This document shows positions 1,621 through 49,105 of a stretch of DNA of 49,223 bases, piece after piece. Position 1 is the stretch's first letter; the number at the start of each line of letters is the position of its first letter. The DNA lies in sequence record NC_103567.1, one strand, 5' to 3'. Position numbers and translations under genes: made by a program. The notes below the pieces were generated by a model that ran no database searches, was not told where the DNA came from, and saw nothing but the letters and a program-made list of their open reading frames with translations. Source of the stretch: a phage.

Positions 1621-1641
1621 AATAGCACTTTTTGTTAAAAC
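1621..1641 (+). promoter_or_regulatory. 21-bp early-promoter-associated motif, class I (AATAGCACTTTTTGTTAAAAC)
   Basis: Matches the dispersed motif; TGG-CATAAT extended -10-like element about 22 bp downstream; gene follows. Confidence 0.6.
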
Positions 1642-1696
1642 TCGATTGGGGTAGTTTGGCATAATTACCACATCGAAACGAAACGAGGAAAACACA

Positions 1697-1855
1697 ATGA
1701 CTACCTTAATCACCTGGGAACACGAAACAAGCCAGCCAGTAACCCGCGAGTTTGAAACTCTTAGCCAGGCTTATCTGCTTGCTGCTAACGGTGGTTATTA
1801 CAAGGCGCAAGTTGTTGATGAAATGGGAGTGATTGTTTATGAGTTCCATGCATAA
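1697..1855 (+). CDS. hypothetical small protein (about 52 aa)
   Basis: ATG preceded by GAGGA; hand translation MTTLITWEHETSQPVTREFETLSQAYLLAANGGYYKAQVVDEMGVIVYEFHA; coordinates approximate. Confidence 0.4.
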   Translation: MTTLITWEHETSQPVTREFETLSQAYLLAANGGYYKAQVVDEMGVIVYEFHA

Positions 1856-2120
1856 TTTCCGCAGCTACACGCAGGAAGTGGATTTTGATGGGATCAAGTT
1901 ACCAATTCCTAACATATACCGCTATATCACTCGTGATGAATACGGATTTATAAACGCCTGGAGAGATAAGCCCAAAAAGGTTGGCAATGAATACGGCGAC
2001 GGCTCAGAGATGCCGATCACGTTAGGTCATCAAACTGGCGAGAATGTAGCGGCTGTAATGCGCAAATATCGCCGCAGCCGCACAAACTCATTAATTTCTA
2101 TCTTTGGCATACCGGAGTAA
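1839..2120 (+). CDS. hypothetical protein
   Basis: ORF track 1833-2120; first ATG at 1839 has GGAGTG about 8 nt upstream. Confidence 0.6.
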   Translation: MSSMHNFRSYTQEVDFDGIKLPIPNIYRYITRDEYGFINAWRDKPKKVGNEYGDGSEMPITLGHQTGENVAAVMRKYRRSRTNSLISIFGIPE

Positions 2121-2125
2121 TAAAA

Positions 2126-2383
2126 ATGTTTGAACTGAAACGCGTAACTGTTGAGATCCTGAATGATGGCTCTTACGATGGAATGAAACACTTAACCTTC
2201 CCGATCCGCATTGAGAATTGCATTGATTACGGTATTGAAGTTGGCATGGTTGACGTTCCTCTTGATGCACTTATCGCGGCTGGCTATGACAAAGAGAAAG
2301 GCCAATGTGCTGATATACCGGATAGCTATGAAAGCGACACACATTTCCCGTTCACCTATGGCGAATGCCGGATTGTTGATTGA
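2126..2383 (+). CDS. hypothetical protein
   Basis: 85-aa ORF immediately after the previous gene, same strand. Confidence 0.6.
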   Translation: MFELKRVTVEILNDGSYDGMKHLTFPIRIENCIDYGIEVGMVDVPLDALIAAGYDKEKGQCADIPDSYESDTHFPFTYGECRIVD

Positions 2384-2455
2384 GGTGATAAAGTGAGCAG
2401 TTGGCACAATGAGCACGTAATGCAATTCTACCGACACAGAATAAAAAAAATGATC

Positions 2456-2476
2456 AATAGCACGAATTGCTAAAAC
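2456..2476 (+). promoter_or_regulatory. 21-bp motif, class II (AATAGCACGAATTGCTAAAAC)
   Basis: Motif followed by inverted repeat GGGCTT...AAGCCC with TATAGT in its loop; gene at 2533. Confidence 0.6.
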
Positions 2477-2532
2477 AGAATTTTGGGCTTGCGGTATAGT
2501 AAGCCCATACCAAACAACGAGAGGATCACAAA

Positions 2533-2859
2533 ATGGAATTAGCACGCAACGCGGTTTATGGATTACACCTTAAAGGCGGCAAAGGCTCAACTTATGCGCA
2601 CCTGTTTCATGTTAACGAGCGCGGTCAAATTGATATTGCAATGTTTGTTGACCAAAGGGTTAAGAAAGGCGGTGAGGGTGATTGTGATACATTCCGACCG
2701 GATTTGGTTGAATACGATCACACATACAGTCATGATCACTGGATTGGTCACGGTCGCAAGTTTGTAATGGTTAATAGCCACGTTACCGACACAAGCAAAA
2801 TCACTGCATCGCAGTATAAGCGCATGGCTCGCAAGGTTATGAAGTTAGAAGCGCAATAG
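2533..2859 (+). CDS. hypothetical protein
   Basis: 108-aa ORF downstream of a motif copy; GAGAGGA-like RBS. Confidence 0.6.
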   Translation: MELARNAVYGLHLKGGKGSTYAHLFHVNERGQIDIAMFVDQRVKKGGEGDCDTFRPDLVEYDHTYSHDHWIGHGRKFVMVNSHVTDTSKITASQYKRMARKVMKLEAQ

Positions 2860-2931
2860 CACAAAATGTTAAGCGGTCATGTGTGCTGATGGGTATAATG
2901 ACCGCATCAACCAACCAAAGGAGAAGTAAAA

Positions 2932-3039
2932 ATGTCTAAAGAGTCTATCAAGCAGTTTCTGAAATACGGTTCTATGATTGTGCTCGCTACCGTTGTGCTG
3001 GCTGGCATCGCGTATAGCATTATTGAGTTTGCGGGGTAA
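2932..3039 (+). CDS. small membrane peptide (35 aa)
   Basis: AAGGAGAAG RBS, ATG, hand translation MSKESIKQFLKYGSMIVLATVVLAGIAYSIIEFAG; TATAAT-containing promoter-like sequence about 40 bp upstream. Confidence 0.5.
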   Translation: MSKESIKQFLKYGSMIVLATVVLAGIAYSIIEFAG

Positions 3040-3042
3040 TTG

Positions 3043-3606
3043 ATGTTTACGATCAACTTGTGGGGAAGGGATTATGTTAATCCATATGTTGCGACAAAAC
3101 AGCGTTTCGTTATTTTCGACCTAGACGGCACATTGTCAAATGGTGAGCACCGCTTGCACCTGTTGCCAACTGTTGATTTGCATCTTACTGAAAGCTGGAG
3201 TGAGTTTAATCGCGCCGCAAAGGATGATTCACCATTCAGCAATAACATTTCCGTGTGCAACGCCATGTTTGACGCCGGATACCTGGTTATCATCCTAACA
3301 GGACGTAGTGATGAAGTTGAAGCAGAAACGCGAGCCTGGTTAGCTGAAAACGGCGTTTCTTTCGATTGGCTAATTATGCGCCGCGCGGAGGACAACCGGA
3401 AAGATACAGTAATCAAAGAGGAAGTTTTACGGACTATCGGACTAGATCGCATTGTCGCATGTTGGGATGACTCGCCAAACGTTATTGCACACCTTCGCGG
3501 CCTGGGCTTGACTGTTTACCAGGTAATTGACTACGGCGAGCAGTTACACGATCACTTAAAATCTCACGGCGTGGAGGAATTGAGCGATGACAGCAAAGCT
3601 AATTGA
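3043..3606 (+). CDS. HAD-superfamily phosphatase (nucleotidase or polynucleotide 3-phosphatase-like)
   Basis: N-terminal FVIFDLDGTLS matches HAD motif I (DxDGT); 187 aa. Confidence 0.7.
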   Translation: MFTINLWGRDYVNPYVATKQRFVIFDLDGTLSNGEHRLHLLPTVDLHLTESWSEFNRAAKDDSPFSNNISVCNAMFDAGYLVIILTGRSDEVEAETRAWLAENGVSFDWLIMRRAEDNRKDTVIKEEVLRTIGLDRIVACWDDSPNVIAHLRGLGLTVYQVIDYGEQLHDHLKSHGVEELSDDSKAN

Positions 3607-3775: not shown

Positions 3776-3785
3776 AGGATTTATT

Positions 3786-3971
3786 ATGTTGACTTTTATC
3801 TTGATCGCTATCGTTTTAATTCTGTATGTTTGCGGCGCTTTCCTGATGCGAGCACTACTAAAAGAGGCTGACGCTGATGATAAGGATAGTTGGAAGCCGA
3901 TTCTTTTATGGCCTGGTTATATCATCGTGCCAATTTACGAGCTAATCCGCGATGGTGAGTTTAAATGGTAA
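3786..3971 (+). CDS. small membrane protein
   Basis: ORF track 3753-3971; internal ATG at 3786 with AGAGGA RBS; N-terminal hydrophobic helix LTFILIAIVLILYVCGAFLM. Confidence 0.55.
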   Translation: MLTFILIAIVLILYVCGAFLMRALLKEADADDKDSWKPILLWPGYIIVPIYELIRDGEFKW

Positions 3972-3991
3972 ATAGCACTTTTTGCTAAAAC
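3971..3991 (+). promoter_or_regulatory. 21-bp motif, class I
   Basis: AATAGCACTTTTTGCTAAAAC then inverted repeat GGCACA...TGTGCC enclosing TGATAAAGT. Confidence 0.6.
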
Positions 3992-4048
3992 TTGCTAAGG
4001 CACATTTGATAAAGTGTGCCTTGTCGAGACAAGCAAGGAGAATGACAA

Positions 4049-4360
4049 ATGAAAGTATTTACCACTGTTGGATTTAGAACTAACCATTATTACATTGTTA
4101 ACGATGACGGCGTTATTTTTGCCTCACAAAAACCGTTCTTTGATGGTGATAATTTTTTCAAGAGCGTATTTCAATCGCCTGGTGTTTTGGTAAGTATGTG
4201 CAATCGTGGCTCGTTAGCGCCTTACAACAAAGAGGCTAAGGATTTTGTTAATAAGGCAAACGGCATCAAGAGAAAGCGAGAAATGAATAAACACGTTATC
4301 GCCGTTATTGTTTGTGTGGCAATTGCCGTTGGTTCTATTTTCATGGGGGTTTGGTCATGA
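4049..4360 (+). CDS. hypothetical protein with C-terminal transmembrane anchor
   Basis: 103-aa ORF; AAGGAGAA RBS; C-terminal VIAVIVCVAIAVGSIFMGVW. Confidence 0.6.
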   Translation: MKVFTTVGFRTNHYYIVNDDGVIFASQKPFFDGDNFFKSVFQSPGVLVSMCNRGSLAPYNKEAKDFVNKANGIKRKREMNKHVIAVIVCVAIAVGSIFMGVWS

Positions 4361-4539: not shown

Positions 4540-5107
4540 AATTATTATCCTCAACGCGCCGCCTGGTGCTGGCAAAGATACGATTGGCAAGATGATTTCT
4601 GTCTATTCGCCTGGTAAGCAATGCCGAATCATTAGCTTTAAAGAGCCAATGTTTGATATTGCATTAGCTATCCTGGGCAAAGAGAACTATCAGCGTTTCA
4701 TGCTGGCTTACGATTACAGAGAGCAGAAAGAAAGGCCGCAAACATTCCTGATGGGTATGTCACCGCGCGAGTTCATGATCTGGATTAGCGAGGATGTGAT
4801 CAAGCCTAAATTCGGTAAGGATTATTTCGGCGTAAGGTTTAATCAGAAAGTAAAAGAGTGTGATGCTCCTGTTGTTTGCACTGATGGCGGTTTTCCAGAT
4901 GAAATTATAGCGCTAATCAATGCTGGTAATGAGGTGAAGTTATGCCGCTTGCACCGCGACGGGTTCACGTTTGCAGGTGATAGCCGCAACTACATTCGAA
5001 TAAATCCATACTACCAGAAAAACGGATATAGCGAGCACGATTATAAATTGGTTGATAAACAACCAAATGTAACGGTAAAGGAAATCATTCGCGATCACCT
5101 TAAATAG
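4532..5107 (+). CDS. P-loop nucleotide kinase (deoxynucleoside monophosphate kinase-like)
   Basis: N-terminal IIILNAPPGAGKDT Walker A in the arrangement seen in phage dNMP kinases; 191 aa. Confidence 0.7.
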   Translation: MAKIIILNAPPGAGKDTIGKMISVYSPGKQCRIISFKEPMFDIALAILGKENYQRFMLAYDYREQKERPQTFLMGMSPREFMIWISEDVIKPKFGKDYFGVRFNQKVKECDAPVVCTDGGFPDEIIALINAGNEVKLCRLHRDGFTFAGDSRNYIRINPYYQKNGYSEHDYKLVDKQPNVTVKEIIRDHLK

Positions 5108-5123
5108 CACGAATTGCTAAAAC
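5103..5123 (+). promoter_or_regulatory. 21-bp motif, class II
   Basis: AATAGCACGAATTGCTAAAAC then AAGGCC...GGCCTT enclosing TGTTATAGT. Confidence 0.6.
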
Positions 5124-5187
5124 TTGCGCAAGGCCATTTGTTATAGTGGCCTTATTCAAGAGAAGCAACCAATCAGAGGAATAAACG

Positions 5188-5385
5188 ATGAAAATCAAAT
5201 GCACCAAATCAAACACAATGAATCTGACAGTTGGCGCGATTTACCATATGGAAGAAGGTGTAAACGGGTTTAGCCCAACTGTTACGCATGAGTACGGCGG
5301 TCACTTCTTCTTAAACGGTAAAGACGGATTATCTGTAAATGTTGGCTCTTTCGTTCTGGCAGAATTTGAGATCGTGGAGGAATAA
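5188..5385 (+). CDS. hypothetical protein
   Basis: 65-aa ORF with GAGGAA RBS. Confidence 0.55.
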   Translation: MKIKCTKSNTMNLTVGAIYHMEEGVNGFSPTVTHEYGGHFFLNGKDGLSVNVGSFVLAEFEIVEE

Positions 5386-5981: not shown

Positions 5982-6494
5982 ATGAAAGCTAAAAATGATT
6001 TTTATAACTACCTGACAAAAGGCCGCGACTATACCGTTTTGAATAGCATAGATACTCTTTACCTGGTTGTTGCTGATAATGGCGTTAGAGTTTGGCTTGA
6101 TAAAACTCTTTTCGAAAGCGAGCACCTAAGCAATGCAAAGCGGATCGCAGATGAAGCAAGTGCATTAGCAGAGCGTGAAAGAATTCGCGATATCGTTGCG
6201 GAGCAGGTGAGAAATTCATGTTCGCCTGGTGGCGATATCTTCAAATCAATGCGCGGTGAAATGACTGTTGGAATTCAAGATCGCGTAATTGCAAAATCAG
6301 TTGATTCTGTAATTGAGAATGCGAAATTCAATGCGTTGATTAACTCAGAGCCTAACGAATACGTCAAAGTGTTAGAGCAACTGCGTGAAGTGCTGAGAGT
6401 GCCGGAAGGTGAGAATATAGTGACTCATGCAAAGGTTGTAAGGACGTTGGCTGATGCTTTGCTTGACGTTTACCCAGGAATGAAGTGCAAATAG
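5982..6494 (+). CDS. hypothetical protein
   Basis: 170-aa ORF, AAGGAGAA RBS. Confidence 0.65.
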   Translation: MKAKNDFYNYLTKGRDYTVLNSIDTLYLVVADNGVRVWLDKTLFESEHLSNAKRIADEASALAERERIRDIVAEQVRNSCSPGGDIFKSMRGEMTVGIQDRVIAKSVDSVIENAKFNALINSEPNEYVKVLEQLREVLRVPEGENIVTHAKVVRTLADALLDVYPGMKCK

Positions 6495-6510
6495 CACTTT
6501 TTGTTAAAAC
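6490..6510 (+). promoter_or_regulatory. 21-bp motif, class I
   Basis: AATAGCACTTTTTGTTAAAAC then GAGGGCA...GTCCTC enclosing TGTTAAAGT. Confidence 0.6.
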
Positions 6511-6568
6511 TTCCGCGAGGGCATTTGTTAAAGTGTCCTCATTGAAGCGAAACACGGAGATTTAGAAA

Positions 6569-6772
6569 ATGGCTGTATACACTGGCAAGATGTTTGAAAG
6601 CGAAAACCCGATTTACGGCGGCACTTATGAGCTAATCATTGATGAAGATCGCGTTATCCTGGCTGATGACGACAGCGAGGAATATTATGAAGTAGAGGCC
6701 GACAAATGGGATAACGACGTTATGTTTCTTGTTGATAACAACCGCATCAAGTTTTACGCAGTGGAGGAATAA
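6569..6772 (+). CDS. small strongly acidic protein
   Basis: 67-aa ORF with about 30 percent Asp+Glu (DEDRVILADDDSEEYYEVEADKWDND); ACGGAGA RBS. Confidence 0.6.
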   Translation: MAVYTGKMFESENPIYGGTYELIIDEDRVILADDDSEEYYEVEADKWDNDVMFLVDNNRIKFYAVEE

Positions 6773-14809: not shown

Positions 14810-14858
14810 CGTGCTAACACAAAAAACACTTGAACGTTTAACAAAAAATGCTATATTA

Positions 14859-30110: not shown

Positions 30111-30401
30111 ATGGAACAGCAATTCAATGAGCAAGACATTCAAGATGTGCGCGATCACGTAGGCGGATTTGTAAACGCATTAGGAATTATGCAACGCCAG
30201 TTCTTGCGCGTAATTGATCCAAGCGAATCACCGGAAACTCTTGAATATGTTCGCAAGGTTGCATATTCGATTGATAACGTTGTGTTAACGGTTCTTCAAA
30301 TGGAAAATAACGAAGAACACCGCAAGATGATTAATCAGGCAAGTGAAATCATGATCCAGAATTTGATTGATTATCACAACGATAACGAAGAAAAGCATTA
30401 A
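30111..30401 (+). CDS. hypothetical acidic protein
   Basis: ORF track 30063-30401; internal ATG 30111 has GAGAGAGAGG RBS. Confidence 0.55.
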   Translation: MEQQFNEQDIQDVRDHVGGFVNALGIMQRQFLRVIDPSESPETLEYVRKVAYSIDNVVLTVLQMENNEEHRKMINQASEIMIQNLIDYHNDNEEKH

Positions 30402-33980: not shown

Positions 33981-33991
33981 AATTTCACCTC

Positions 33992-34011
33992 ATAGCATTT
34001 TTTGTTAAAAT
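33992..34011 (+). promoter_or_regulatory. 21-bp motif variant (ATAGCATTTTTTGTTAAAAT), orphan copy pointing antisense to the primase gene
   Basis: Plus-strand orientation between two minus-strand genes; followed by CCATTTGTTACATG and GC hairpin CCCCGCCGAAGCGGGG. Confidence 0.45.
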
Positions 34012-35082: not shown

Positions 35083-35116
35083 TAAAAAAAACTGGCACGA
35101 TGATAAACCATGCCAG
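35083..35116 (-). terminator. rho-independent terminator between the HTH gene and the primase gene
   Basis: On the minus strand CTGGCATGG...CGTGCCAG hairpin followed by a long T-run. Confidence 0.6.
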
Positions 35117-35126
35117 GCCGGAATTT

Positions 35127-35735: not shown

Positions 35736-35745
35736 ATTTTCACCT

Positions 35746-35767
35746 ATAGCACTTTTTGCTAAAAAAC
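35746..35767 (+). promoter_or_regulatory. 21-bp motif, class I variant
   Basis: TATAGCACTTTTTGCTAAAAAAC, then TGTGTATGAT -10-like element; helicase gene follows. Confidence 0.55.
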
Positions 35768-35823
35768 TTGATTAAGTTTGTGTATGATATGCCGCAAATG
35801 GCATTTAGTCAAAAGGATAAAAA

Positions 35824-37797
35824 ATGATTCCTAACATTGAAAAGCAGATTGCAGATCTGGGAGAGGAAAGGATTAAGGCAATCCAGAAGCGTTTCACGGT
35901 TGGTGAGATTGTCCCGTATGAATACCAATGCGTTGCTTACGCTGAAATTGCAAAGCGCTTGAGTAAGTATGTTGATCCGTTTTTCGTTAAAGCGGCGGTG
36001 TCGGCAGGTAAAACAATCATCTTTGCTATGGTTGCGGCTCAGTGCAGGAAAATGGGATTGAAAGCGTTATTTCTGGCGCGTCAATCTGAAATTGTGGATC
36101 AGGATTCAAAAGAGATTAGCGCCTTTGGTGTTCCGAATTCCGTTTATTGCGCTGGCCTGAATACCAAAAGCGCTTATTTCCCGATTGTTGTAGGATCGGA
36201 AGGTACTGTAATTGGCGGATTGAATAAGGCGTTAGGTGATTACGTCCCACAGGTTTTAGGTATAGATGAATGTCATCAAGTCAACTGGAATGATATTGTT
36301 GAAGCCGAGGAAAACGGCGAAAGCATAGAGCAAATGATGACACCGAAAGGTGAACCAGTTGAAGGCAATCCGTTGCTGATTGGTTCAGGCCGCGCACAAT
36401 ACACCATTATCATTGCAGAAATGCGCCGCCGTTGTCTTGAGACTTACGGTCATCAGTTGCGTATATTTGGAATGACAGGATCGGAATATCGCGGAATTGA
36501 GCCGATACTTGTCGAAGATAAAAGAATTCCTGGGTTTTGGCGTGAGCAGATCACAAACATTGATACTGATTACCTGGTAAAATTTGGTTCAGTTGTTCCC
36601 ACTTATTTTGGCAATGTTGGTGATTTGGGTTACGACTTATCAGAATTTACGCCAGTGAATGAATTTGGCGTTGCTGATTATGACCAGAAGCAATTAAAGG
36701 CCATGAGTGACAAGATTCACCAATCAGGAACCATGACGCAGAAAATAATGCAGATGGTTCACGAGGTGATGAAAAACCGCTTGTGCGCTCTTGTTACTTG
36801 CGCTGACGAAAGGCACTGCAAAGAGGCAGCGGCGGCGCTTCCTCCTGGCACGAAATATCACATTATTACCGGAAAAACTGGAGAGAAACAGAGGCGCTTA
36901 TGGCTTGAGGATGCTTATGAAGGCAGGGTGAAATATATTTTTCAGGTTCAGGCGCTAACAACTGGCGTGAACGTGCCGCCGTGGGATACTTCTGTTATTT
37001 TGCGTAAGATCGGAAGTCTCACGCTATTAACTCAGCTTTTGGGGCGTGGTATGCGTCAATTAAAAACATACCATAAAGAAGTATTGGGGATGCACAAAAC
37101 GGATCACCTTGTTTTGGATTTTTCAGGCACGATGTTTGAAATGGGTAATTTGTATTTCGATCCGATGTTAGAGCAAGCGCAATTCCAGTTACGTAAATCA
37201 CAGGACAAAGATCCGAAATATTGCCCGATTTGCGGTACAGAAAATTCATTCTATGCTCGCCGTTGCATTAATGAGGATGAAAACGGAAATCGTTGTGAAC
37301 ATTTCTGGACGTTCCAGGAATGTGAGGATCAGATTGATGACCGCACAAAGAAAGTTATTGTAAAAGGTTGCGGCGCAAAAAATGACGTTGCGGCGCGTGT
37401 ATGCCGTTGCTGTAATGTTCAGTTACGCGATCCAAATGATAACTTATCCGGCAAGATGTACCGTAAAAACGATTGGTGCGACGTGTTAGATTTTAATGTG
37501 ACGCTGACAAAAAACCAGGCTGGCGTAATATTCTGCTACACGTTACGTGATAGTGGCGGCGTAGAATTCAGGGCATACGAAAAATATTTCCCTGAATCAG
37601 AACACAAGATATGTAAAACGCTTTGGACAAAGGCGGTTAGAACACATGTTATAGATCGCCAAGCCGCAAACTTTATGATCGCTTGCCGCAATGCAATTAA
37701 GATCATGAGTTATGCGGGGCAAATATTGCCGCCAAAACGTGTTACCCATCGCAAGAACACAAAGAAAGAAGATTTGATCGCACAGAAGGAGTTTTAA
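35824..37797 (+). CDS. superfamily-2 ATP-dependent helicase with C-terminal zinc-ribbon motifs
   Basis: 657 aa; Walker A VSAGKT, DExH-like LGIDECHQV; C-terminal CPICG...C..C and CGAKN...CRCC pairs. Confidence 0.8.
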   Translation: MIPNIEKQIADLGEERIKAIQKRFTVGEIVPYEYQCVAYAEIAKRLSKYVDPFFVKAAVSAGKTIIFAMVAAQCRKMGLKALFLARQSEIVDQDSKEISAFGVPNSVYCAGLNTKSAYFPIVVGSEGTVIGGLNKALGDYVPQVLGIDECHQVNWNDIVEAEENGESIEQMMTPKGEPVEGNPLLIGSGRAQYTIIIAEMRRRCLETYGHQLRIFGMTGSEYRGIEPILVEDKRIPGFWREQITNIDTDYLVKFGSVVPTYFGNVGDLGYDLSEFTPVNEFGVADYDQKQLKAMSDKIHQSGTMTQKIMQMVHEVMKNRLCALVTCADERHCKEAAAALPPGTKYHIITGKTGEKQRRLWLEDAYEGRVKYIFQVQALTTGVNVPPWDTSVILRKIGSLTLLTQLLGRGMRQLKTYHKEVLGMHKTDHLVLDFSGTMFEMGNLYFDPMLEQAQFQLRKSQDKDPKYCPICGTENSFYARRCINEDENGNRCEHFWTFQECEDQIDDRTKKVIVKGCGAKNDVAARVCRCCNVQLRDPNDNLSGKMYRKNDWCDVLDFNVTLTKNQAGVIFCYTLRDSGGVEFRAYEKYFPESEHKICKTLWTKAVRTHVIDRQAANFMIACRNAIKIMSYAGQILPPKRVTHRKNTKKEDLIAQKEF

Positions 37798-37799: not shown

Positions 37800-38207
37800 A
37801 TGGTTACTGATAAAGGCGATTATCTGGAGTATTACGACAAATCAGATCCAGATGACAGAAAAGAGGAAGCGCACCAGGTTGATTCTTATTCATGGTTAAC
37901 ATATGAGTTTCCAATGTGGCTTGTTTGGCACACTAAAAACGAAGGGAAGAAAACAATAGGCACAGCAGTAAAGGATCAGCAAGCAGGTGTAAAAAAAGGA
38001 GTAAGCGACATTCTAATCCTGACTGGTTTTATTGGCTGCAAATATGCATTCATTGCAATTGAGCTTAAACGAGCCAACAAGAAAGGAACTAAAGTAAGCC
38101 AGGAACAAAGGGAATTCTTGCGCCGCGTTAGGGAATGCGGAGGATTTGCCGCAGTATGCTATGGTGTAGATCAAGTAAAATTGGCTATCGCAGACGCTAC
38201 AAAATAG
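37800..38207 (+). CDS. VRR-NUC-like PD-(D/E)xK nuclease
   Basis: 135 aa; DILILTGF...IAIELKRAN fits a D...ExK core; immediately follows the helicase. Confidence 0.6.
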   Translation: MVTDKGDYLEYYDKSDPDDRKEEAHQVDSYSWLTYEFPMWLVWHTKNEGKKTIGTAVKDQQAGVKKGVSDILILTGFIGCKYAFIAIELKRANKKGTKVSQEQREFLRRVRECGGFAAVCYGVDQVKLAIADATK

Positions 38208-38223
38208 CACTTTTTGTTAAAAC
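38203..38223 (+). promoter_or_regulatory. 21-bp motif, class I
   Basis: AATAGCACTTTTTGTTAAAAC then GGCGC...GCGCC and CATAAT. Confidence 0.6.
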
Positions 38224-38278
38224 AGGCGCGACGGAATGCGCCATAATGCACACATCAGAACGAAACGGAGAATTAACC

Positions 38279-38557
38279 ATGAAAAAGATGTTATCAGTAG
38301 TTGCTTTATCACTTGCCATTGTTGGTTGCATGGATAAACCAAAAACATATATTTGCGGAAATGAAGCGTTTGAGGTTACAAGCGAATATATGAAAGTTGT
38401 GCAAGGTAAAAGCACAGGCGTTGTAATGGATAATATCAGCAAAAATCAATATAAGCTGTTTACGCCAATTGGAACGGCTTTTTACACTGTTAACGATAGC
38501 ACCATTGATATTAAAGTTGGCGTTTATCAGAACACTCTAACTTGCGAGGTAAAATAA
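38279..38557 (+). CDS. lipoprotein (possible superinfection-exclusion protein)
   Basis: ORF track 38135-38557; internal start gives MKKMLSVVALSLAIVGC with lipobox; GGAGAA RBS. Confidence 0.6.
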   Translation: MKKMLSVVALSLAIVGCMDKPKTYICGNEAFEVTSEYMKVVQGKSTGVVMDNISKNQYKLFTPIGTAFYTVNDSTIDIKVGVYQNTLTCEVK

Positions 38558-39300: not shown

Positions 39301-39531
39301 ATGAGCATTCGATTAGCCGATCACATGAAATGGGATTTATTTGTCGGTATGACAATTCGCTTACTTGATAAGCATGGTTATAACGATGATAAAATGGAGT
39401 TGATAAACTGCCTGGATATGACATTTGACGAAATCAAAGTTGCGCCTTTGTACATGTGGGAAAGAAAAATTGAGCACGACCTGATACAATACAAACGCAG
39501 AGAGGGCGCACGATTTTTCAATGTGAAATAG
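39301..39531 (+). CDS. hypothetical protein
   Basis: 76-aa ORF directly after dam. Confidence 0.55.
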   Translation: MSIRLADHMKWDLFVGMTIRLLDKHGYNDDKMELINCLDMTFDEIKVAPLYMWERKIEHDLIQYKRREGARFFNVK

Positions 39532-39547
39532 CACTTTTTGTTAAAAC
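39527..39547 (+). promoter_or_regulatory. 21-bp motif, class I
   Basis: AATAGCACTTTTTGTTAAAAC then CCCGC...GCGGG and TATTAT. Confidence 0.6.
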
Positions 39548-39602
39548 CCGCTACGGCGGGTTTTGTATTATGTGCTTAACGGAAAACAAGAGGATTTCAA
39601 AA

Positions 39603-39767
39603 ATGAAAATCGTAAACGTCGAATACTTCAAAGATGCGCAATGGCTGGCTAAAGAATCATTGTTTATGCTTGATCGCAAAAATCCAAAGGTTATTGCACA
39701 AATACTTTGGAATGACGCAATGGAGTTACTTAAAAAGGCTTACGGTTATGAAAGTGAAGAAAGGTAA
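39603..39767 (+). CDS. hypothetical small protein
   Basis: ORF track 39570-39767; internal ATG 39603 has AAGAGGA RBS. Confidence 0.5.
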   Translation: MKIVNVEYFKDAQWLAKESLFMLDRKNPKVIAQILWNDAMELLKKAYGYESEER

Positions 39768-42402: not shown

Positions 42403-42418
42403 GCCGCCTTTTCTTTTA
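42391..42418 (+). terminator. rho-independent terminator after the lysis cassette
   Basis: AAGGCGGCATAAGCCGCCTT followed by a T-rich run. Confidence 0.6.
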
Positions 42419-42637
42419 AAAAATATTGTTCATTAAGTCTTGGAAACTATTACCGCTATAATCCTTTTCCTCAATAATGTGAGCGCCTTTCTTTTTTATA
42501 TCCCACAGCATTTTTTCATATTCGCAGCGGTTAATGCCAAACGTACTACCATCATCAACATATGCGGTTCCTTTGTTGTTGAAAACGTCAAATGTAACAT
42601 TAACAACGCGAATTGTTTTGATAGTGCATTTTAACAT
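42416..42637 (-). CDS. hypothetical protein
   Basis: 73-aa ORF; AAAGGA RBS on the minus strand; motif copy at 42698 upstream. Confidence 0.55.
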   Translation of the reverse strand: MLKCTIKTIRVVNVTFDVFNNKGTAYVDDGSTFGINRCEYEKMLWDIKKKGAHIIEEKDYSGNSFQDLMNNIF

Positions 42638-42697
42638 TTTGTTTTCCTTTTGTTGCTACGTTTCGTTAAAACAAATATACCCGATACAAGATCGGGT

Positions 42698-42718
42698 GTT
42701 TTAACAAAAAGTGCTATT
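42698..42718 (-). promoter_or_regulatory. 21-bp motif, class I (reverse complement)
   Basis: GTTTTAACAAAAAGTGCTATT on the plus strand; an inverted repeat lies downstream in the direction of transcription. Confidence 0.6.
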
Positions 42719-43229: not shown

Positions 43230-44810
43230 TTACCCCATTAACGCCGGATTTACATAAACAAATTTACCAACGCTGCAAACATAATTCTTTTCTTCAAGCA
43301 TTGGCAATAATTGTTCCTCAATTCGTTTCATCACTCCTGATTGACCTGTAAACGGCTTAACCTTACGCGCACTTTCATAGATAGCTCTTGCATTGGTAAC
43401 GCCTTTATTTTGACGTGAGATCTTAATGATTATTTCAATTAACTTGCTCATTTCTGCATCATCTCCAGCGTGACCGGAAGCATTCGCGGCGTTGATATAT
43501 GTTTTGCTTAATTCGCTGAACATCACCAAAGCCTCTTGCATTGTCTCAACTTCAATTTCTCGCGACTTTTGCGGCGTACCGTTTGGATTAAACCAATTGC
43601 GGATCGTGTGCAATACTGACGCAATGCGGATCACTTGCTTATCCATTTTACCCAAAGCACCACGCAACATTGTATGTGAATATTTCCCGCCGTCTGCTAA
43701 ATCTGGCTCTAATTGCTGGCGAGCAATATTAAGAACACGCATTGCAGAACGTGACGGCTTCAATACCACATTTTGTTCAGTCATGATGTTATGAATCAAC
43801 TGGAAATATTGCGCCTTTAATTCTTTATCAACTGGCGTGTAATCAAGATCACCATTTTCATCAATAAATACACGCTCGCCTAACATTGTTTTTTCACGTA
43901 CAAGCAAGAAACGTTCACTAACACCGATACCACGCGCCCCTGCATCCATGATCCCTTTTATCGTTTCATCCTGGGCAATTACGCTCATGCAGCCCAACGC
44001 AACAAAACTCATATTGTTTTCAGAGTTGGCGCGAGCTATTGAAACGTGTCCGGCGTCCCATGCTTTTAGAACCAATTCGCTGTTAGTCTTGCGATCACTA
44101 TTAGCGTAAGTCAATCCGAGTAAGCTGTTGATGCTTGTTGCTTCATCGGAAATGACAGCAAAGTTACCCTGGCGATTGTTGATCTTTGCTAACCCTTCCG
44201 GCGTGGTGTCTGATACCGGAAAAACGATATCGCACATTTTTTCTAACTTTTCCTCTAATTCCTCCTTTTCCTCAAACAGCGCCGCTAACTCAGTGCCGGA
44301 ACGTTCAGCTTTCAATTCCTTTTCAACGCCTTTTAATTTCGCTGCGATCTTCTTTCGCTCTTTCTTGCGTTGTTCGTTGATGCGCTCAACTTCACAGACC
44401 ATTGGCGCAATAGCCAGGCTGTTGATTGCTGATTTACCAGTTGATGGCGGCTGACTGGTTACAACATAAAGCGCCGTTGGTTGTTCAGTGCCGTGGTACT
44501 CAACTTGGAAGCGTCCAACCATAGCGGCGGAAACGCAACCAATGAAATGCATATAGGCCGATGATTCAGGAAATTGAACAGATTGCGCAATGCTACGTGA
44601 CAGTTTACCCACAACATCAACATCATTACCCAAAGAGATCACAGGATAGCGGTCATTAGCGCCGTTGATATCCTTTACAGGTTCCCAAAAGCTGGACGAT
44701 TGGCGGTAGCCGTTAGACTGAATAGCAACGCGAAGCGGCGATGTTCCCTGCGATTCTGCAATGGCTATAACTTGTTGAGGTGTCAATTTGTTGGTGTCAA
44801 AGTCAAACAT
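43230..44810 (-). CDS. P-loop NTPase, possibly a replicative-helicase or primase-associated ATPase
   Basis: 526 aa; Walker A-like SQPPSTGKSA, charged coiled-coil stretch, Walker B-like FAVISDE; own motif-type promoter. Confidence 0.55.
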   Translation of the reverse strand: MFDFDTNKLTPQQVIAIAESQGTSPLRVAIQSNGYRQSSSFWEPVKDINGANDRYPVISLGNDVDVVGKLSRSIAQSVQFPESSAYMHFIGCVSAAMVGRFQVEYHGTEQPTALYVVTSQPPSTGKSAINSLAIAPMVCEVERINEQRKKERKKIAAKLKGVEKELKAERSGTELAALFEEKEELEEKLEKMCDIVFPVSDTTPEGLAKINNRQGNFAVISDEATSINSLLGLTYANSDRKTNSELVLKAWDAGHVSIARANSENNMSFVALGCMSVIAQDETIKGIMDAGARGIGVSERFLLVREKTMLGERVFIDENGDLDYTPVDKELKAQYFQLIHNIMTEQNVVLKPSRSAMRVLNIARQQLEPDLADGGKYSHTMLRGALGKMDKQVIRIASVLHTIRNWFNPNGTPQKSREIEVETMQEALVMFSELSKTYINAANASGHAGDDAEMSKLIEIIIKISRQNKGVTNARAIYESARKVKPFTGQSGVMKRIEEQLLPMLEEKNYVCSVGKFVYVNPALMG

Positions 44811-44861
44811 CTAAAAATCTCCTTCTTGTTGCCGCTAATTATAACGGCAACATTCTACAGC

Positions 44862-44882
44862 CTTTTAGCAATTCGTGCTATT
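44862..44882 (-). promoter_or_regulatory. 21-bp motif, class II (reverse complement)
   Basis: CTTTTAGCAATTCGTGCTATT on the plus strand upstream of the 526-aa gene. Confidence 0.6.
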
Positions 44883-45126
44883 TGATCGGCTCAACCCTGG
44901 CTAATAACCTTCCATCTATAATGCTATGACATTCAAGAGTTTTAGGATCGAATGCAAGCGAACGATGGAACGTATGACCAATCAGCAAATATGAATGCTT
45001 ATCCCTGATGCGATAGACCGTTTCACCTTCCTTTAATGACGATATCGCACTAAAAACAACCTTGTAACGATATTTTTGCATAGCCTCAGAACGGTGAGGC
45101 GTATAGTCTTTTTCTGGTAAACTCAT
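44878..45126 (-). CDS. hypothetical protein
   Basis: 82-aa ORF overlapping the upstream gene stop. Confidence 0.5.
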   Translation of the reverse strand: MSLPEKDYTPHRSEAMQKYRYKVVFSAISSLKEGETVYRIRDKHSYLLIGHTFHRSLAFDPKTLECHSIIDGRLLARVEPIK

Positions 45127-45485
45127 GAGTATTTGGCCTCAAACAGATAAGCACCGCCAGCGGCTGAAAATCCAACTTCTTCACGATACAGCGTGAAACG
45201 GTCGCCGTTTTCGTCGAACACGTATCCAGCAACAGCACCTAACACGCGGCCTTGTTCGATCTGGTAACGCTTATCGGCTTTGAAAGTTTTCTTGATCTGC
45301 ATGGAGTGGTTTACCCATGTGCATTTAATGGTTTTGGTCTTAACATTTCGGAATGTTAATCCGGTTAAGTTGGCGTGAATCCATTTCCCATCTAACTTAA
45401 CGAAAGTATCATCATTTTCGTCTACCCGCGCTTTGTATAGGCGGTTATCAGATCCGATAAGTTTGATTGATTTGAATTTAGCCAT
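45123..45485 (-). CDS. hypothetical protein
   Basis: 120-aa ORF; AAAGGAGA RBS on the minus strand; motif copy upstream. Confidence 0.6.
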   Translation of the reverse strand: MAKFKSIKLIGSDNRLYKARVDENDDTFVKLDGKWIHANLTGLTFRNVKTKTIKCTWVNHSMQIKKTFKADKRYQIEQGRVLGAVAGYVFDENGDRFTLYREEVGFSAAGGAYLFEAKYS

Positions 45486-45541
45486 TTGATTTATCTCCTT
45501 TTGTTTTCGTTGAAAGCATTATGCCGGATACGTGATCCGGC

Positions 45542-45562
45542 GTTTTAACAAAAAGTGCTATT
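45542..45562 (-). promoter_or_regulatory. 21-bp motif, class I (reverse complement)
   Basis: GTTTTAACAAAAAGTGCTATT on the plus strand. Confidence 0.6.
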
Positions 45563-46451: not shown

Positions 46452-46694
46452 TTAGAATGGGAAACAACGCTTGCAAGATGGATCGAAGTTACAACCGCAA
46501 TCATTGATTATTGCGTTAGGATCAGCAAGCATCACGCTACTTTCTTGATCCATATCCATAGCGCCTAATGCGTCATCAAGCGTTATTTCAAGATAGGCAA
46601 CTTTAAGCGCCCATTCCTTGTTGAGTCCAGCCGCCTCCGCTTCATGTAGGCGAGCAAAGAAAGCATCTTGAACCATATCAACCCCACTTCTCAA
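46452..46694 (-). CDS. hypothetical protein with C-terminal Cys cluster
   Basis: 80-aa ORF ending CGCNFDPSCKRCFPF; overlaps the upstream gene. Confidence 0.5.
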   Translation of the reverse strand: MRSGVDMVQDAFFARLHEAEAAGLNKEWALKVAYLEITLDDALGAMDMDQESSVMLADPNAIINDCGCNFDPSCKRCFPF

Positions 46695-46899
46695 TAAACA
46701 TGCTCATTTCGTCAATCATCGCGTAAGCATCGCTTTCAGTCATGCGACGTATTCTTCCGCCTGGGTGTTCGCCAACAGCGTAACCAGTTTTTACGCGGGT
46801 AATCGTTAACTGATGGAATCCAGAATCGCGATCCATTTTCAAAACTACTTTCCCGTGAGCTTTGACAATGTTCATGATGGATTCAGTTTTCAGTTTCAT
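46678..46899 (-). CDS. hypothetical protein
   Basis: 73-aa ORF; GGAGAA RBS on the minus strand; motif copy upstream. Confidence 0.55.
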   Translation of the reverse strand: MKLKTESIMNIVKAHGKVVLKMDRDSGFHQLTITRVKTGYAVGEHPGGRIRRMTESDAYAMIDEMSMFIEKWG

Positions 46900-46953
46900 T
46901 TTTGATTCTCCATTTTGTTTGTGTGAAAGTATGATACCAGTCAGAGCGATATC

Positions 46954-46975
46954 GTTTTTAGCAATTCGTGCTGTT
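46954..46975 (-). promoter_or_regulatory. 21-bp motif, class II variant (reverse complement)
   Basis: GTTTTTAGCAATTCGTGCTGTT on the plus strand. Confidence 0.5.
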
Positions 46976-47121: not shown

Positions 47122-47367
47122 TCATAATTTAACCTCATGATATTCTATGAATTCTTGCACATATGCGCATTCGCGCGGCGACTCTTGGCCTTTTAGCACT
47201 TCACAGCCACTATTAAACAGATAGCAGTGCTGGCAAAGGTTGCCGCCTACGTTTTCCTCAGCGATCTGAATTCCGGTACACAAGCCGCCGCCAAACCTAT
47301 GAACGAAATGATAAGCGGAACACCTGCAATTAATTTGCCTACGCTTTCTTTTTGCCGTGGTTTTCAT
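47122..47367 (-). CDS. hypothetical Cys-rich protein (uncertain)
   Basis: 81-aa ORF with 8 Cys; overlaps the 3-prime end of the HNH gene by about 29 nt. Confidence 0.35.
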   Translation of the reverse strand: MKTTAKRKRRQINCRCSAYHFVHRFGGGLCTGIQIAEENVGGNLCQHCYLFNSGCEVLKGQESPRECAYVQEFIEYHEVKL

Positions 47368-47851
47368 GAAAACCCCTGTTTATTTTTTCTCTCTCAATAG
47401 CCATGCTAGCTAATTCAGGAGAATCAAAAAGACCAATATGGATTTCTTTTCCTTCTACTTTTAATCTTGCTCTCCATTTTTTAGCTACGGAATGCCACGA
47501 AACACCGTTAAACCCTGATTTATTTGCTTTGCAATATGATTGATTTTTACCGTTTTCATTTGCACTAACAAGGCGTAGGTTTTCTATCCTGTTATCAATT
47601 CTGTCGTGGTTTATATGATCAATCTGCATTCCTTCTGGAATTTTGCCATTATGCATTTCCCAAACGATTCGATGCGCAAGATAACTTTTATCATTCAATG
47701 TTATCTCTATGTATCCATCATTTCTAATGCTTCCTGCAACTTTTCCAGCCCACTTTTTATTCCATGCAGAATCTCTATATGATCTTATGTTTGTGCGCGG
47801 CTTTCTTATAAGATTACCGCAATCATATATAAAAAAGTCGTGCCAATTCAT
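47339..47851 (-). CDS. HNH homing endonuclease with AP2-like DNA-binding domain
   Basis: 170 aa; YLAHRIVWEMHNG...DHINHDRIDNRIENLRLVSANEN is an HNH motif; C-terminal FNGVSWHSVAKKWRARLKVEGKEIHIGLF looks like an AP2 domain. Confidence 0.75.
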   Translation of the reverse strand: MNWHDFFIYDCGNLIRKPRTNIRSYRDSAWNKKWAGKVAGSIRNDGYIEITLNDKSYLAHRIVWEMHNGKIPEGMQIDHINHDRIDNRIENLRLVSANENGKNQSYCKANKSGFNGVSWHSVAKKWRARLKVEGKEIHIGLFDSPELASMAIEREKINRGFHENHGKKKA

Positions 47852-47905
47852 TTTAAATTCTCCGGTTCGTTTCGATGAATGTATTATGCCAAAACAAACC
47901 GGATC

Positions 47906-47926
47906 GCTTTTAACAAAAAGTGCTAT
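47906..47926 (-). promoter_or_regulatory. 21-bp motif, class I (reverse complement)
   Basis: CTTTTAACAAAAAGTGCTATT on the plus strand upstream of the HNH gene. Confidence 0.6.
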
Positions 47927-48027
47927 TTAATTAAAATACGAATACCTTTTCGCACGCTTTCCGTCGCCTCCGTAATGGTCATTAGCAACAGCAAGAATCC
48001 AAGCGTTAGGAATAAAAAATAGCTCCA

Positions 48028-48222
48028 TCAATCACTCTCCATGACAATTACAGGCTCAAGGCGCTCAAGCACCACTTTGAAATCGGAGTAAAAAGTAGGG
48101 CGACGTTTTGTTAATTCCTCATATGTATCAGTTGCCAGGCAAGCGCGATCACCTTCATAGCACACAACTCGCTTACCATTTGCGCGACTGATTGCAACGA
48201 CGCGATAAGTATTATTGATCAT
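48028..48222 (-). CDS. hypothetical protein
   Basis: 64-aa ORF overlapping the upstream gene stop. Confidence 0.5.
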   Translation of the reverse strand: MINNTYRVVAISRANGKRVVCYEGDRACLATDTYEELTKRRPTFYSDFKVVLERLEPVIVMESD

Positions 48223-48455
48223 TTCATCACCTCAATTGAATAAATACTTTCAACGCCTGGCGCGTATAACCGCTTTCCATCTTCAGTTATGCAAAGACAA
48301 AGGGCAAGGCCGCGATTGTCTGAAATATGCAAGTCATTTTGTCTATCCATCAAAATTTCATATTCGCGATCTTCATCAAAGCGCCAAACTCTTAACATGC
48401 ACTTTCCAGATGATTTAACTTTTACTTTCTTTCCGATGAAATTTAAACGACTCAT
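48219..48455 (-). CDS. hypothetical protein
   Basis: 78-aa ORF overlapping neighbours in operon-like packing. Confidence 0.5.
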   Translation of the reverse strand: MSRLNFIGKKVKVKSSGKCMLRVWRFDEDREYEILMDRQNDLHISDNRGLALCLCITEDGKRLYAPGVESIYSIEVMK

Positions 48456-48670
48456 TGTGCAGCCTCCACAGTTTCAAATACGGTATTGAATGCCAGAAGT
48501 TTAAATTTCTTGCCTGGCTCAACAACCTGAATATTCCAGGTAATGCCGCCGTGATATGCAACCATATCATCAATATCAACAGTAACCTCAGTACCTTTTT
48601 TGAACAATCCTTTTTCGTGGCTCGCATCGCGTACAGTAACCACAGTTTCGAATTGAGTTTGAATTTCCAT
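48452..48670 (-). CDS. hypothetical protein
   Basis: 72-aa ORF; AGGAG RBS on the minus strand; motif copy upstream. Confidence 0.6.
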   Translation of the reverse strand: MEIQTQFETVVTVRDASHEKGLFKKGTEVTVDIDDMVAYHGGITWNIQVVEPGKKFKLLAFNTVFETVEAAQ

Positions 48671-48724
48671 CGTTAATCTCCTGATTGGTTTCGATGGGGC
48701 AACTATATCAAGATACCCCGATCC

Positions 48725-48746
48725 TTTTTTAGCAATTCGTGCTATT
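48725..48746 (-). promoter_or_regulatory. 21-bp motif, class II (reverse complement)
   Basis: TTTTTTAGCAATTCGTGCTATT on the plus strand. Confidence 0.6.
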
Positions 48747-49029
48747 AGCCAAACGCTTTAATTTCGAAATCTTCTTCTGCCTGATTAGCAACCGCCGTGA
48801 ACATTTGCTCAAGAGTTTCAAAGCCGAAATGTTTAGCGATCTCATAAGCCGCTTTACCTTCCGTCTGCATGTTTAGCGCTTCGCAATAGTGCATTTCCAG
48901 ATTGTTCAGGTATTTGTTGCCAGTTGGGATTGCTGCGTCGATTTTGTCCCACACGATCCAAAAGTTTGTTTTGTCAGCCGCTGCGAGTACAAAGTTTGTC
49001 TTGTCTACTGCAATCACTAAGTTTTCCAT
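48745..49029 (-). CDS. hypothetical protein with internal short duplication
   Basis: ORF track 48745-49065; likely start at internal ATG 49029 with GAGGA RBS; contains VIAVDKTNFVLAAADKTNFWIVW. Confidence 0.55.
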   Translation of the reverse strand: MENLVIAVDKTNFVLAAADKTNFWIVWDKIDAAIPTGNKYLNNLEMHYCEALNMQTEGKAAYEIAKHFGFETLEQMFTAVANQAEEDFEIKAFG

Positions 49030-49062
49030 CGTGTAATCCTCAGTTCGTTTCGTTGAGGTAAT

Positions 49063-49080
49063 CATAGCAATTCGTGACTG
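49063..49080 (-). promoter_or_regulatory. 21-bp motif, degenerate class II copy, in tandem with the next copy
   Basis: CATAGCAATTCGTGACTG on the plus strand. Confidence 0.4.
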
Positions 49081-49084
49081 ATTG

Positions 49085-49105
49085 GTTTTAACAAAAAGTG
49101 CTATT
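49085..49105 (-). promoter_or_regulatory. 21-bp motif, class I (reverse complement)
   Basis: GTTTTAACAAAAAGTGCTATT on the plus strand; outermost leftward promoter candidate. Confidence 0.6.

Follow-up and report, generated by a model that had tools for sequence, protein, structure and literature searches.

What reads the 21-nucleotide (nt) repeat that precedes gene after gene in the phage sequence NC_103567.1? This stretch of 49,223 nt, referred to below as the window, is a complete TLS-like genome of the Drexlerviridae (genus Tlsvirus), and beginning with its first gene it is colinear with phage TLS. A 12-kb stretch of it is 98% identical to the Salmonella phages phSE-2 and phSE-5, and about 94-96% identical to the Citrobacter phages of the Stevie/CF1 group. 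An earlier note, made from the letters of the window, had taken the repeat for an undescribed, phage-specific signal. The same 21-nt repeats have been reported in TLS (PMC11447400), and we find that they match perfectly the consensus of the host marbox, the site of the activators MarA, SoxS and Rob (PMC6900184). We consider it fairly probable that the copies mark early promoters of the phage and that each of these has an idealised host marbox, of the class II type, as its foundation.

A search with AATAGCACNNNTTGYTAAAAC at up to three mismatches recovered 18 strong copies of AATAGCACnnnTTGYTAAAAC in the window, where 0.18 would be expected, and none of 100 dinucleotide shuffles attained 18 copies of this pattern. 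The copies start at 1621, 2456, 3971, 5103, 6490, 30033, 33991, 35745, 38203 and 39527 on the plus strand, and at 35124, 42698, 44862, 45542, 46955, 47907, 48726 and 49085 on the minus strand. The weight-matrix scan that the earlier note had proposed gave them scores of 23.8-34.4 bits, far above the highest score found in 50 shuffled genomes (16.9), and all the strong copies are intergenic. The scan also added a reversed copy at 14835(-), with 19.7 bits, and a 19th complete unit with the central triplet AAA is present at 2855(+). The earlier list of copies was thus right overall, except that the copy placed at 49063 is merely a partial second core (CACGAATTGCTATGAT) within the 49085 unit, and that 35124(-), 2855(+) and 14835(-) had been overlooked.

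The copies were said to mark the starts of transcription units, in the orientation of a nearby downstream gene, and this agrees with what we observe: in 18 of the 19 copies a Shine-Dalgarno sequence and an ATG follow on the same strand, the ATG 72-85 nt from the motif start, and a -10-like hexamer lies between. The sole copy that lacks a downstream gene is 33991. Preceding genes frequently stop at or inside the motif, by a TAG at motif positions 3-5 in eight copies (for example 5105-5107, 6492-6494 and 38205-38207) and by a TAA at positions 16-18 in three, so that no spacer separates the promoter from the coding sequence before it, the two being adjacent or overlapping. With regard to the central triplet, the two classes described earlier, TTT and GAA, are real, and an AAA class and a TGA variant exist besides them. 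The suggestion that TTT and GAA might serve temporal control found no support; both classes are mixed on both early arms, and the variable triplet coincides with degenerate W positions of the marbox.

Downstream of the motif the anatomy is constant. The -10-like hexamer starts 18 nt past the motif in 16 of the 19 copies and 17 nt past it in the other three (the weak hexamer of 33991 included), which corresponds to 21-22 nt past TTGYTA. It conforms to TAnnnT or CATAAT in 18 of 19 copies and is preceded by the TG of an extended -10 in 10 of the 18 gene-linked ones. A conserved C-A follows 6-7 nt past the hexamer, and the A located 7 nt after the -10 is the predicted transcription start; counted from it, the motif would span about -51 to -31, where an activator would sit; the earlier note had placed it around -35 to -55, a region of UP elements or activator sites. 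The predicted start is followed by a leader that is conserved and rich in A (CATCGAAACGAAAC), and this leads up to the Shine-Dalgarno sequence and ATG. The units and copies are as follows:

1621..1672 (+), TTT unit: motif 1621-1641; -10 TGgCATAAT 1660-1665; predicted +1 A 1672; gene 1697..1855
2456..2507 (+), GAA unit: -10 TATAGT 2495-2500 inside the hairpin GGGCTT/AAGCCC; gene 2533..2859
2855..2906 (+), AAA unit (AATAGCACAAAATGTTAAGCG): -10 TATAAT 2894-2899; small open reading frame (ORF) 2932..3039
3971..4023 (+), TTT unit: -10 TGaTAAAGT 4010-4015 in the loop of AAGGCACA/TGTGCCTT; gene 4049..4360
5103..5154 (+), GAA unit: -10 TGtTATAGT 5142-5147; gene 5188..5385
6490..6541 (+), TTT unit: -10 TGtTAAAGT 6529-6534; gene 6569..6772; final unit ahead of the late region
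30033..30083 (+), TTT unit with a 17-nt gap: -10 TGgTATACT 30071-30076; gene 30111..30401
33991..34011 (+), degenerate copy (CATAGCATTTTTTGTTAAAAT): no convincing -10 and no downstream gene
35093..35144 (-), TGA-variant unit: -10 TATCAT 35100-35105 in a hairpin loop, followed by T8 (terminator-like); primase gene 34141..35067
35745..35796 (+), helicase unit: -10 TATGAT 35783-35788; helicase gene 35824..37797
38203..38254 (+), TTT unit: -10 CATAAT 38242-38247 with a hairpin just upstream of it; gene 38279..38557
39527..39578 (+), TTT unit: hairpin CCCGC/GCGGG, TTTTG, then -10 TATTAT 39566-39571; gene 39603..39767
42667..42718 (-), TTT unit: -10 TATATT 42674-42679; gene 42416..42637
44830..44882 (-), GAA unit: -10 TATAAT 44838-44843 in the loop of GTTGCCG/CGGCAAC; helicase-like gene 43230..44810
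45511..45562 (-), TTT unit: -10 CATAAT 45518-45523; gene 45123..45485
46924..46975 (-), GAA unit (AACAGCAC...): -10 TGgTATCAT 46931-46936; gene 46678..46899
47876..47927 (-), TTT unit: -10 TGgCATAAT 47883-47888; gene 47339..47851
48695..48746 (-), GAA unit: -10 TGaTATAGT 48702-48707; gene 48452..48670
49054..49105 (-), TTT unit: -10 TGcTATGAT 49061-49066, supplied by the partial second core CACGAATTGCTA in the spacer; gene 48745..49029

The hexamer found at the -35 position of these units is AAAACn or TAAAAC, and a scan of the window for canonical promoters picked up none of them. TTGYTA itself was ruled out as a sigma-70 -35 element (TTGACA-like, 16-18 nt before the -10), since it lies 21-22 nt away in every copy, a distance that the earlier note had also judged too long. 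For TLS, merely three canonical sigma-70 promoters were identified by its authors (PMC11447400), and the orthologues of all three are present in the window:

523..551 (+), P01: TTGACG-17-TAATAT; an inverted repeat brackets its -10
28922..28949 (+), P51: TTGACT ... TATAAT; precedes the recE-like gene for exonuclease VIII, 28978..30033
35784..35812 (-), P57: TTGACT-17-TATCAT; serves a phage regulator gene (see below)

In the early left arm (1-9000), canonical sigma-70-like sites are depleted, with 10 observed against 19.4 +/- 4.7 in shuffled sequence.

The element that takes the place of the -35 region fits the marbox. The marbox consensus for MarA, SoxS and Rob, 5'-GCAHWWWWTGYYAAA-3', was drawn from host genes, and its class II sites are in forward orientation and overlap the -35 region (PMC6900184). 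When the window was searched with GCAHWWWWTGYYAAA at up to one mismatch, 21 matches were obtained against 3.2 expected; they include all 18 repeat copies, 12 of them perfect and six with one mismatch. Perfect matches alone number 13 in the window, compared with 0.038 expected from base composition. The TTT class (GCACTTTTTGTTAAA) fits the consensus at 15 of 15 positions and the GAA class at 14 of 15. Motif positions 2-21 (ATAGCACnnWTTGYTAAAAC) constitute an asymmetric marbox-type site with its core at positions 5-19, in which GCAC of recognition element RE1 and AAA of RE2 are seven bases apart, as in the marbox consensus.

The likeness extends to the geometry of the promoter. The class II promoter of micF carries CACT-7X-AAA on its top strand, with the RamA site near -41 (PMC8811837), and the phage motif reads CACT-7X-AAA or CACG-7X-AAA. 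Chromatin immunoprecipitation sequencing (ChIP-seq) combined with cappable-seq in Salmonella has shown that forward sites cluster near -41 and that class II promoters have canonical -10 elements and no recognisable -35 (PMC10268841); the same site geometry is given in PMC12052159. In the micF locus extracted from E. coli MG1655 (start at 135 of the extracted sequence, -10 TAGAAT at 122-127), the marbox core GCACTGAATGTCAAA occupies 87-101 in forward orientation; its centre is at -41, and 20 nt separate its end from the -10. The orientation is the same in all 18 gene-linked phage copies, in which AAA is the half nearer to the -10 and GCAC the one farther away. The gap from core to -10 in the phage amounts to 2 + 18 = 20 nt, identical to micF, in 16 of the 19 window copies and to 19 nt in the other three, and the core is centred at -40/-41 as counted from the predicted +1 A. 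The two 20-mers, ACAGCACTGAATGTCAAAAC of micF and ATAGCACTTTTTGTTAAAAC of the phage, have 15 of 20 bases in common.

The spacing was also determined in five other phages (T1, TLS, Rtp, Vc1 and Motto), and the same set serves for the folding statistics below. They contain 87 matches to the consensus, and for 76 of these a strong -10 is located 14-26 nt away. Among the 76 units, 59 show a gap of 20 nt, eight one of 19 nt and two one of 21 nt. At random positions 13% have such a hexamer, and there the distances are uniformly spread, with none preferred.

Host RNA polymerase might use the (extended) -10 by itself, the motif being an UP-like or DNA-bending enhancer for the C-terminal domain of the alpha subunit (alpha-CTD). 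An UP element is an A/T-only tract at -59 to -38 in its consensus. We regard such factor-independent promoters as rather improbable, although several features are in keeping with them: the TG of an extended -10 is present in 10 of 18 gene-linked window units, as it is in 30 of the 76 units of the five other phages, the TTT-class sequence TTTTTGTTAAAA is similar to the T-tract/A-tract of an UP element, and T1-like phages thrive when the cells are unstressed and also when rob, marA or soxS is knocked out singly. An UP element is also one of the suggestions of the TLS authors (PMC11447400). However, an UP element does not specify the invariant G and C positions of GCAC and TTG, the GAA class is equally conserved and lacks a T-tract, eight of the 18 units have neither a TG nor a -35, the motif spans -51 to -31 and not -59 to -38, and the identity with the marbox would be left unexplained. 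As a description of the motif itself, the UP element was ruled out by the invariant G5, C6, C8 and G14, by this span and by the GAA class.

The units are not peculiar to the window. The same units occur in phSE-2, T1, TLS, Rtp and others, and the window copies are orthologous to those of TLS. Matches to GCAHWWWWTGYYAAA number 22 in phSE-2, 22 in T1, 21 in TLS and 16 in Rtp, about one being expected per genome; there are 12 in Vc1, 16 in half of Motto, and 17 in the Klebsiella Webervirus KpKT21phi1, the G+C content of which is 51%. In a scan of viral contigs with the exact pattern, multi-copy matches were found almost exclusively in contigs of about 46-53 kb. Across subfamilies ATAGCAC and TTGYTAAA are invariant, and these are the positions specified by the marbox, while the central triplet varies (TTT, GAA, AAA, TAA, CTT) on the W positions of the marbox.

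A side observation concerns the host names attached to such genomes. Near-identical T1-like genomes have been deposited under Streptococcus agalactiae (MBBL140), Campylobacter jejuni (about 20 records), Vibrio cholerae (Vc1) and Pseudomonas aeruginosa (Motto). The 'Streptococcus' phage shows 93% identity to the window across 87% of the 12-kb query, and 19-20 'Campylobacter' phages match as well. The host labels of these T1-like records are doubtful.

Which protein, then, may occupy the motif? No AraC-type or HTH_18 domain was found by Pfam in 10 candidate phage proteins, and a profile of MarA, SoxS and Rob (N-terminal domain) detected nothing in six-frame translations of five phage genomes, the best E-value being 0.08; the MarA query sequence was verified against PDB 1BL0 (E = 2e-84). 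Two helix-turn-helix (HTH) proteins had been put forward by the earlier note as candidate binders. One of them, 40074-41189, is annotated as a DNA repair exonuclease/phosphoesterase in related genomes and its HTH match is below threshold. The other is the gene served by P57:

35127..35735 (-), conserved phage 'transcriptional regulator' with Pfam matches to P22_Cro and YdaS

Its predicted fold (AlphaFold, mean predicted local distance difference test score, pLDDT, of 84) is an all-alpha, Cro-type HTH. The top Foldseek matches in the PDB are Xfaso 1 Cro, N15 Cro, C.Esp1396I and HigA, and no AraC-family structure is among its matches. The regulator is present in every motif-bearing phage examined, yet among 42 orthologues the HTH helices are its least conserved part (1.9-2.1 bits of entropy, up to 13 residue types per position), the recognition helix being the most variable segment of all (2.1 bits). 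Almost invariant are an N-terminal basic stretch, IDKRTINGNNGTRRGKDKK, for which the prediction is of low confidence, and a C-terminal block (GFRASFCRPDLRFDxNGKPL..RC); TLS-like regulators carry an extra long C-terminal helix at residues 160-199. This single-HTH protein appears a poor candidate for the binder, given a hypervariable recognition helix on the one side and an invariant DNA motif on the other. The first gene behind P01, gp01 (DUF7174), belongs to a narrow, fast-evolving and poorly conserved family, and the fold search gave at most weak PadR-like hints for it and no convincing DNA-binding fold.

Nevertheless, the motif could be the site of a phage-encoded factor, either the Cro-like regulator, made at once via P57, or an early protein behind P01, with the likeness to the marbox a matter of coincidence or mimicry. 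Such a factor would switch the 19 units on, as an activator of class II type, or off, as a stoperator-like repressor. That the regulator is conserved in every motif-bearing phage examined, that its gene owns one of just three canonical promoters, and that it is flanked by two motif copies, its -10 overlapping that of the helicase unit, all fit this possibility, and so does the Keio screen considered below, which revealed no requirement for a host activator. The motif also contains the 5-bp dyad TAGCA-N5-TGCTA, and Cro-type proteins bind dyads. We nonetheless find a phage-encoded factor unlikely. It is very improbable that a 15/15 fit to an independent host consensus, in the right orientation and with the exact spacing of micF, should arise by chance; the dyad already belongs to the marbox consensus (GCA...TGY), its right half-site is TGTTA in about half of the copies, and the conserved flanks are asymmetric (C at position 8; AAAAC versus AA). 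To this are added the hypervariable recognition helix facing a DNA motif invariant across subfamilies, and the poor conservation of gp01, which lacks a convincing DNA-binding fold. A dyad operator for a dimeric HTH protein was judged less likely on related grounds, namely that GCA-N5-TGC is part of the marbox consensus, that the flanks are asymmetric and that the reading helix of the regulator varies.

The arrangement around the regulator deserves a remark of its own. At 35783-35812 the -10 of the helicase unit (TATGAT, +) overlaps the -10 of P57 (TATCAT, -) face to face, and the motif copy 35745 is located within the regulator leader, 9 nt from the regulator start codon. This could be a switch or a form of autoregulation.

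Taken together, the variable reading head of the regulator, the invariant 20-bp target and the absence of any MarA-like phage protein make the host MarA/SoxS/Rob family, with RamA in addition in Salmonella and Klebsiella, the most economical candidate for the binder as judged from sequence. In the marbox interpretation, each copy would be the upstream half of an early class II marbox promoter. The motif would be occupied by MarA, SoxS or Rob, monomeric activators of the AraC family that the host supplies, or in Salmonella and Klebsiella also by RamA. On the model of micF and further promoters of class II, the bound activator would contact region 4 of sigma-70 as well as the alpha-CTD, and thereby recruit or stabilise host RNA polymerase. 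No phage protein would then be required for the transcription of most early and middle operons, which would track the antibiotic, oxidative and bile stress state of the host.

A number of points weigh against this interpretation. Of the 18 gene-linked units, ten possess an extended -10 and might be active with no activator at all, the phage motif is much less degenerate than host marboxes, and a conserved HTH regulator is expressed from a canonical promoter in all motif-bearing phages; since P57 drives this Cro-like protein, expression might also proceed by a cascade through a phage factor. Rob, though constitutive, is reported to be sequestered for the most part unless an inducer is present (PMC2787020), and stress signals induce MarA and SoxS, which are not constitutively active (PMC12052159, PMC10268841); yet the growth of T1-like phages in ordinary broth is vigorous. 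A Keio screen with the TLS-like phage LL5, which is more than 90% identical to TLS, recovered tolC, genes of the lipopolysaccharide (LPS) core, ppiB and secB, but not rob, marA or soxS (PMC7229145). Because this screen missed all three, no single one of these activators is essential for plating; the result could be explained by redundancy of the three paralogues or by basal activity of the extended -10. The records of Vc1 and Motto, labelled Vibrio and Pseudomonas, carry the motif too, and since their labels are doubtful and their genomes lie near those of enteric phages, the comparison with non-enteric hosts is uninformative as to a host or a phage factor. Finally, our literature search returned no binding or start-site data for any T1-like phage.

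Beyond the marbox and the -10, the units share a further feature. The 40 nt past the motif fold strongly, with a mean minimum free energy (MFE) of -10.9 kcal/mol in the window as compared to -5.1 kcal/mol in controls, and 74% of the window segments fold at -8 kcal/mol or below, against 16% of controls. The difference is reproduced in the five other phages (mean MFE -9.8 versus -3.6 kcal/mol, p = 2e-19). Seven genomes provided 82 units for this comparison; in 52 the -10 is enclosed by the stem, the 3' arm of which is the G+C-rich discriminator, and in 23 the hairpin stops at the -10. Examples of such inverted repeats are 4000-4022, 5132-5153 and 44831-44853. The pairing is kept with differing sequences in related promoters (GGGCTT/AAGCCC, GGCCTT/AAGGCC, GGGGTT/AACCCC): in an alignment of six hairpin sequences all positions pair, three pairs are altered on both sides, and the covariation score was reached by none of 500 shuffles. 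P01 has a like arrangement at 536-559 (TGGCGGC-gataatat-GCCGCCA), and some of these hairpins carry an annotation as rho-independent terminators in T1 and TLS; no known RNA family was found in an Rfam scan of the window. P01 shares the arrangement even though no sense transcription reaches it from upstream. The hairpin may terminate upstream messages or stabilise their 3' ends, it may terminate antisense transcription, or it may be a promoter feature acting at the DNA level.

The repeat might be kept mainly as a recombination or module-boundary sequence, in the manner of the early promoter stem-loop elements (PeSLs) of T4-like phages, with its promoter role secondary. Indeed, ends of homology blocks fall inside units more frequently than expected, both against TLS (11 of 52, with 2.2 expected; p ~1e-5) and against phSE-2 (5 of 22, with 0.9 expected), and the module 1695-2107 is found at the opposite genome end and on the opposite strand in TLS (49709-49297), a shuffling that looks like the modular type known for PeSLs. 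PeSLs are themselves composite promoter-terminator cassettes between small early ORFs (PMC4122927). For recombination, however, sequence identity alone suffices, and the fixed distance to the -10, the orientation with the genes and the match to a host site are not needed; as the primary reason for the repeat we therefore hold this very improbable. It is, moreover, compatible with the marbox explanation and no replacement for it.

Several further copies and sites lie outside this scheme of early units. One of them is the reversed copy:

14835..14855 (-), reversed copy (TATAGCATTTTTTGTTAAACG), shortly before the major head gene (14884)

Read on the plus strand, its 5' end TGcTATATT is an extended -10, followed by a hairpin with TTTTCT and then a Shine-Dalgarno sequence (14835-14880). 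The copy is kept in TLS (DR7/T35), phSE-2, T1 (15069-) and Vc1, and T1 has a second one of this kind at 18833(-). Marbox-like copies are also found directly upstream of late genes (terS, tail J-like) in T1 (8365), TLS (24911) and phSE-2 (20199); they lack a downstream -10 and lie about 20 nt from the start codon, and the copy of the window, at 24718, is degenerate. At 8471-8499 there is a good canonical promoter-like site, TTGGCA-17-TATATT, with a strong bidirectional terminator 24 nt on (8523-8541). Directly after this pair (8471-8541) come the terminase genes and a late region of 23 kb that contains many terminators, a layout that recalls lambda PR'-tR' and late antitermination.

What the marbox interpretation would mean reaches beyond the window. 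It is possible, though as yet a tentative extension, that nearly all early and middle promoters of the Drexlerviridae (among them T1, TLS, Rtp and the Klebsiella Weberviruses) are idealised class II marboxes driven by MarA, SoxS, Rob and RamA. If so, phage gene expression would be tuned by the host's activators of the response to antibiotic, oxidative and bile stress. Stress inducers and multidrug-resistance mutations of the mar or ram type should then boost these phages, and a triple deletion of marA, soxS and rob should cripple them. The same activators also raise TolC, the TLS receptor. We know of no other virulent phage family with its early programme on host stress activators, as opposed to plain sigma-70 or phage factors. 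Many therapeutic phages of Klebsiella and E. coli are Drexlerviridae, so that the interpretation bears on phage-antibiotic synergy and on the collateral sensitivity of mar and ram mutants. The units also represent compact, near-consensus candidate promoters responsive to MarA, SoxS and Rob for toolbox use, and the G+C-rich hairpin that places the -10 in a loop may, if it acts as such, be an additional, undescribed promoter feature.

Among known systems, the repeat of TLS stands closest. The 21-nt direct repeats DR1-DR18 of that phage, with the consensus aaATAGCACnnnTTGnTAAAA, lie in intergenic regions about 76 bases upstream of start codons, point along transcription and fall into groups T, G and A; similar repeats were noted in T1, Rtp and Rogue1 (PMC11447400). 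The repeat of the window is the same element, as judged by its consensus, intergenic placement, co-orientation and distance of about 76 nt. The TLS authors proposed stoperators, enhancer-binding sites or UP elements, and listed the function of the repeat as unanswered in 2024 (PMC11447400). The class II marbox interpretation offers a concrete and testable answer to this question. Their paper contains neither the marbox nor the fixed -10, the hairpin or the leader, all of which are described here. The repeat itself is thus already published; our literature search yielded no paper that links the marbox with a phage, and, for the string ATAGCAC, no relevant paper besides that on TLS.

A comparison can also be made with phages that replace the -35 by an activator box. 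The MotA box of T4 has its centre at about -30 and is separated from the -10 by 11-13 bp, whereas TTGYTA in our units lies 21-22 nt from it, and both the activator and the co-activator of T4 middle promoters (MotA, and AsiA through sigma appropriation) are phage-encoded. A MotA box was ruled out in the window by the wrong distance, and no MotA or AsiA homologues were detected. T4 middle promoters do resemble the units in that they, too, have a -10, no -35 and an activator box with TGCT (PMC4122927). The PeSLs and the middle-promoter PmSLs of T4-like phages (PMC2839356, PMC4122927) are repeated cassettes of a promoter, a stem-loop and a Shine-Dalgarno sequence between small early ORFs, as our units are; rearrangement breakpoints are enriched at them as at the phage units here, and PmSLs likewise swap the -35 for an activator box. 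In contrast, PeSLs use a sigma-70 -35/-10 pair or the phage's own MotA box, and the stem-loop of a PeSL lies upstream of its promoter, whereas that of our units falls within the spacer and discriminator and frequently has the -10 in its loop. The resemblance is one of organisation and function only, with no sequence relation to the PeSLs of T4. The stoperators of mycobacteriophage L5 (cited in PMC11447400) are likewise numerous asymmetric sites oriented with transcription; they bind the repressor of a temperate phage and act inside transcription units, whereas the units here hold a fixed promoter position and TLS-type phages are described as virulent (PMC11447400). In function the phage units would correspond to the class II marbox promoters of the host, such as micF, with which they share an asymmetric 20-bp site in forward orientation, its predicted centre being near -41, the absence of a -35 and a canonical -10. 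Host marbox sites are single and degenerate, in contrast to about 19 near-identical copies in each virulent phage genome, and the phage motif adds three fixed positions to the host marbox, namely the A before GCAC and the TT before G.

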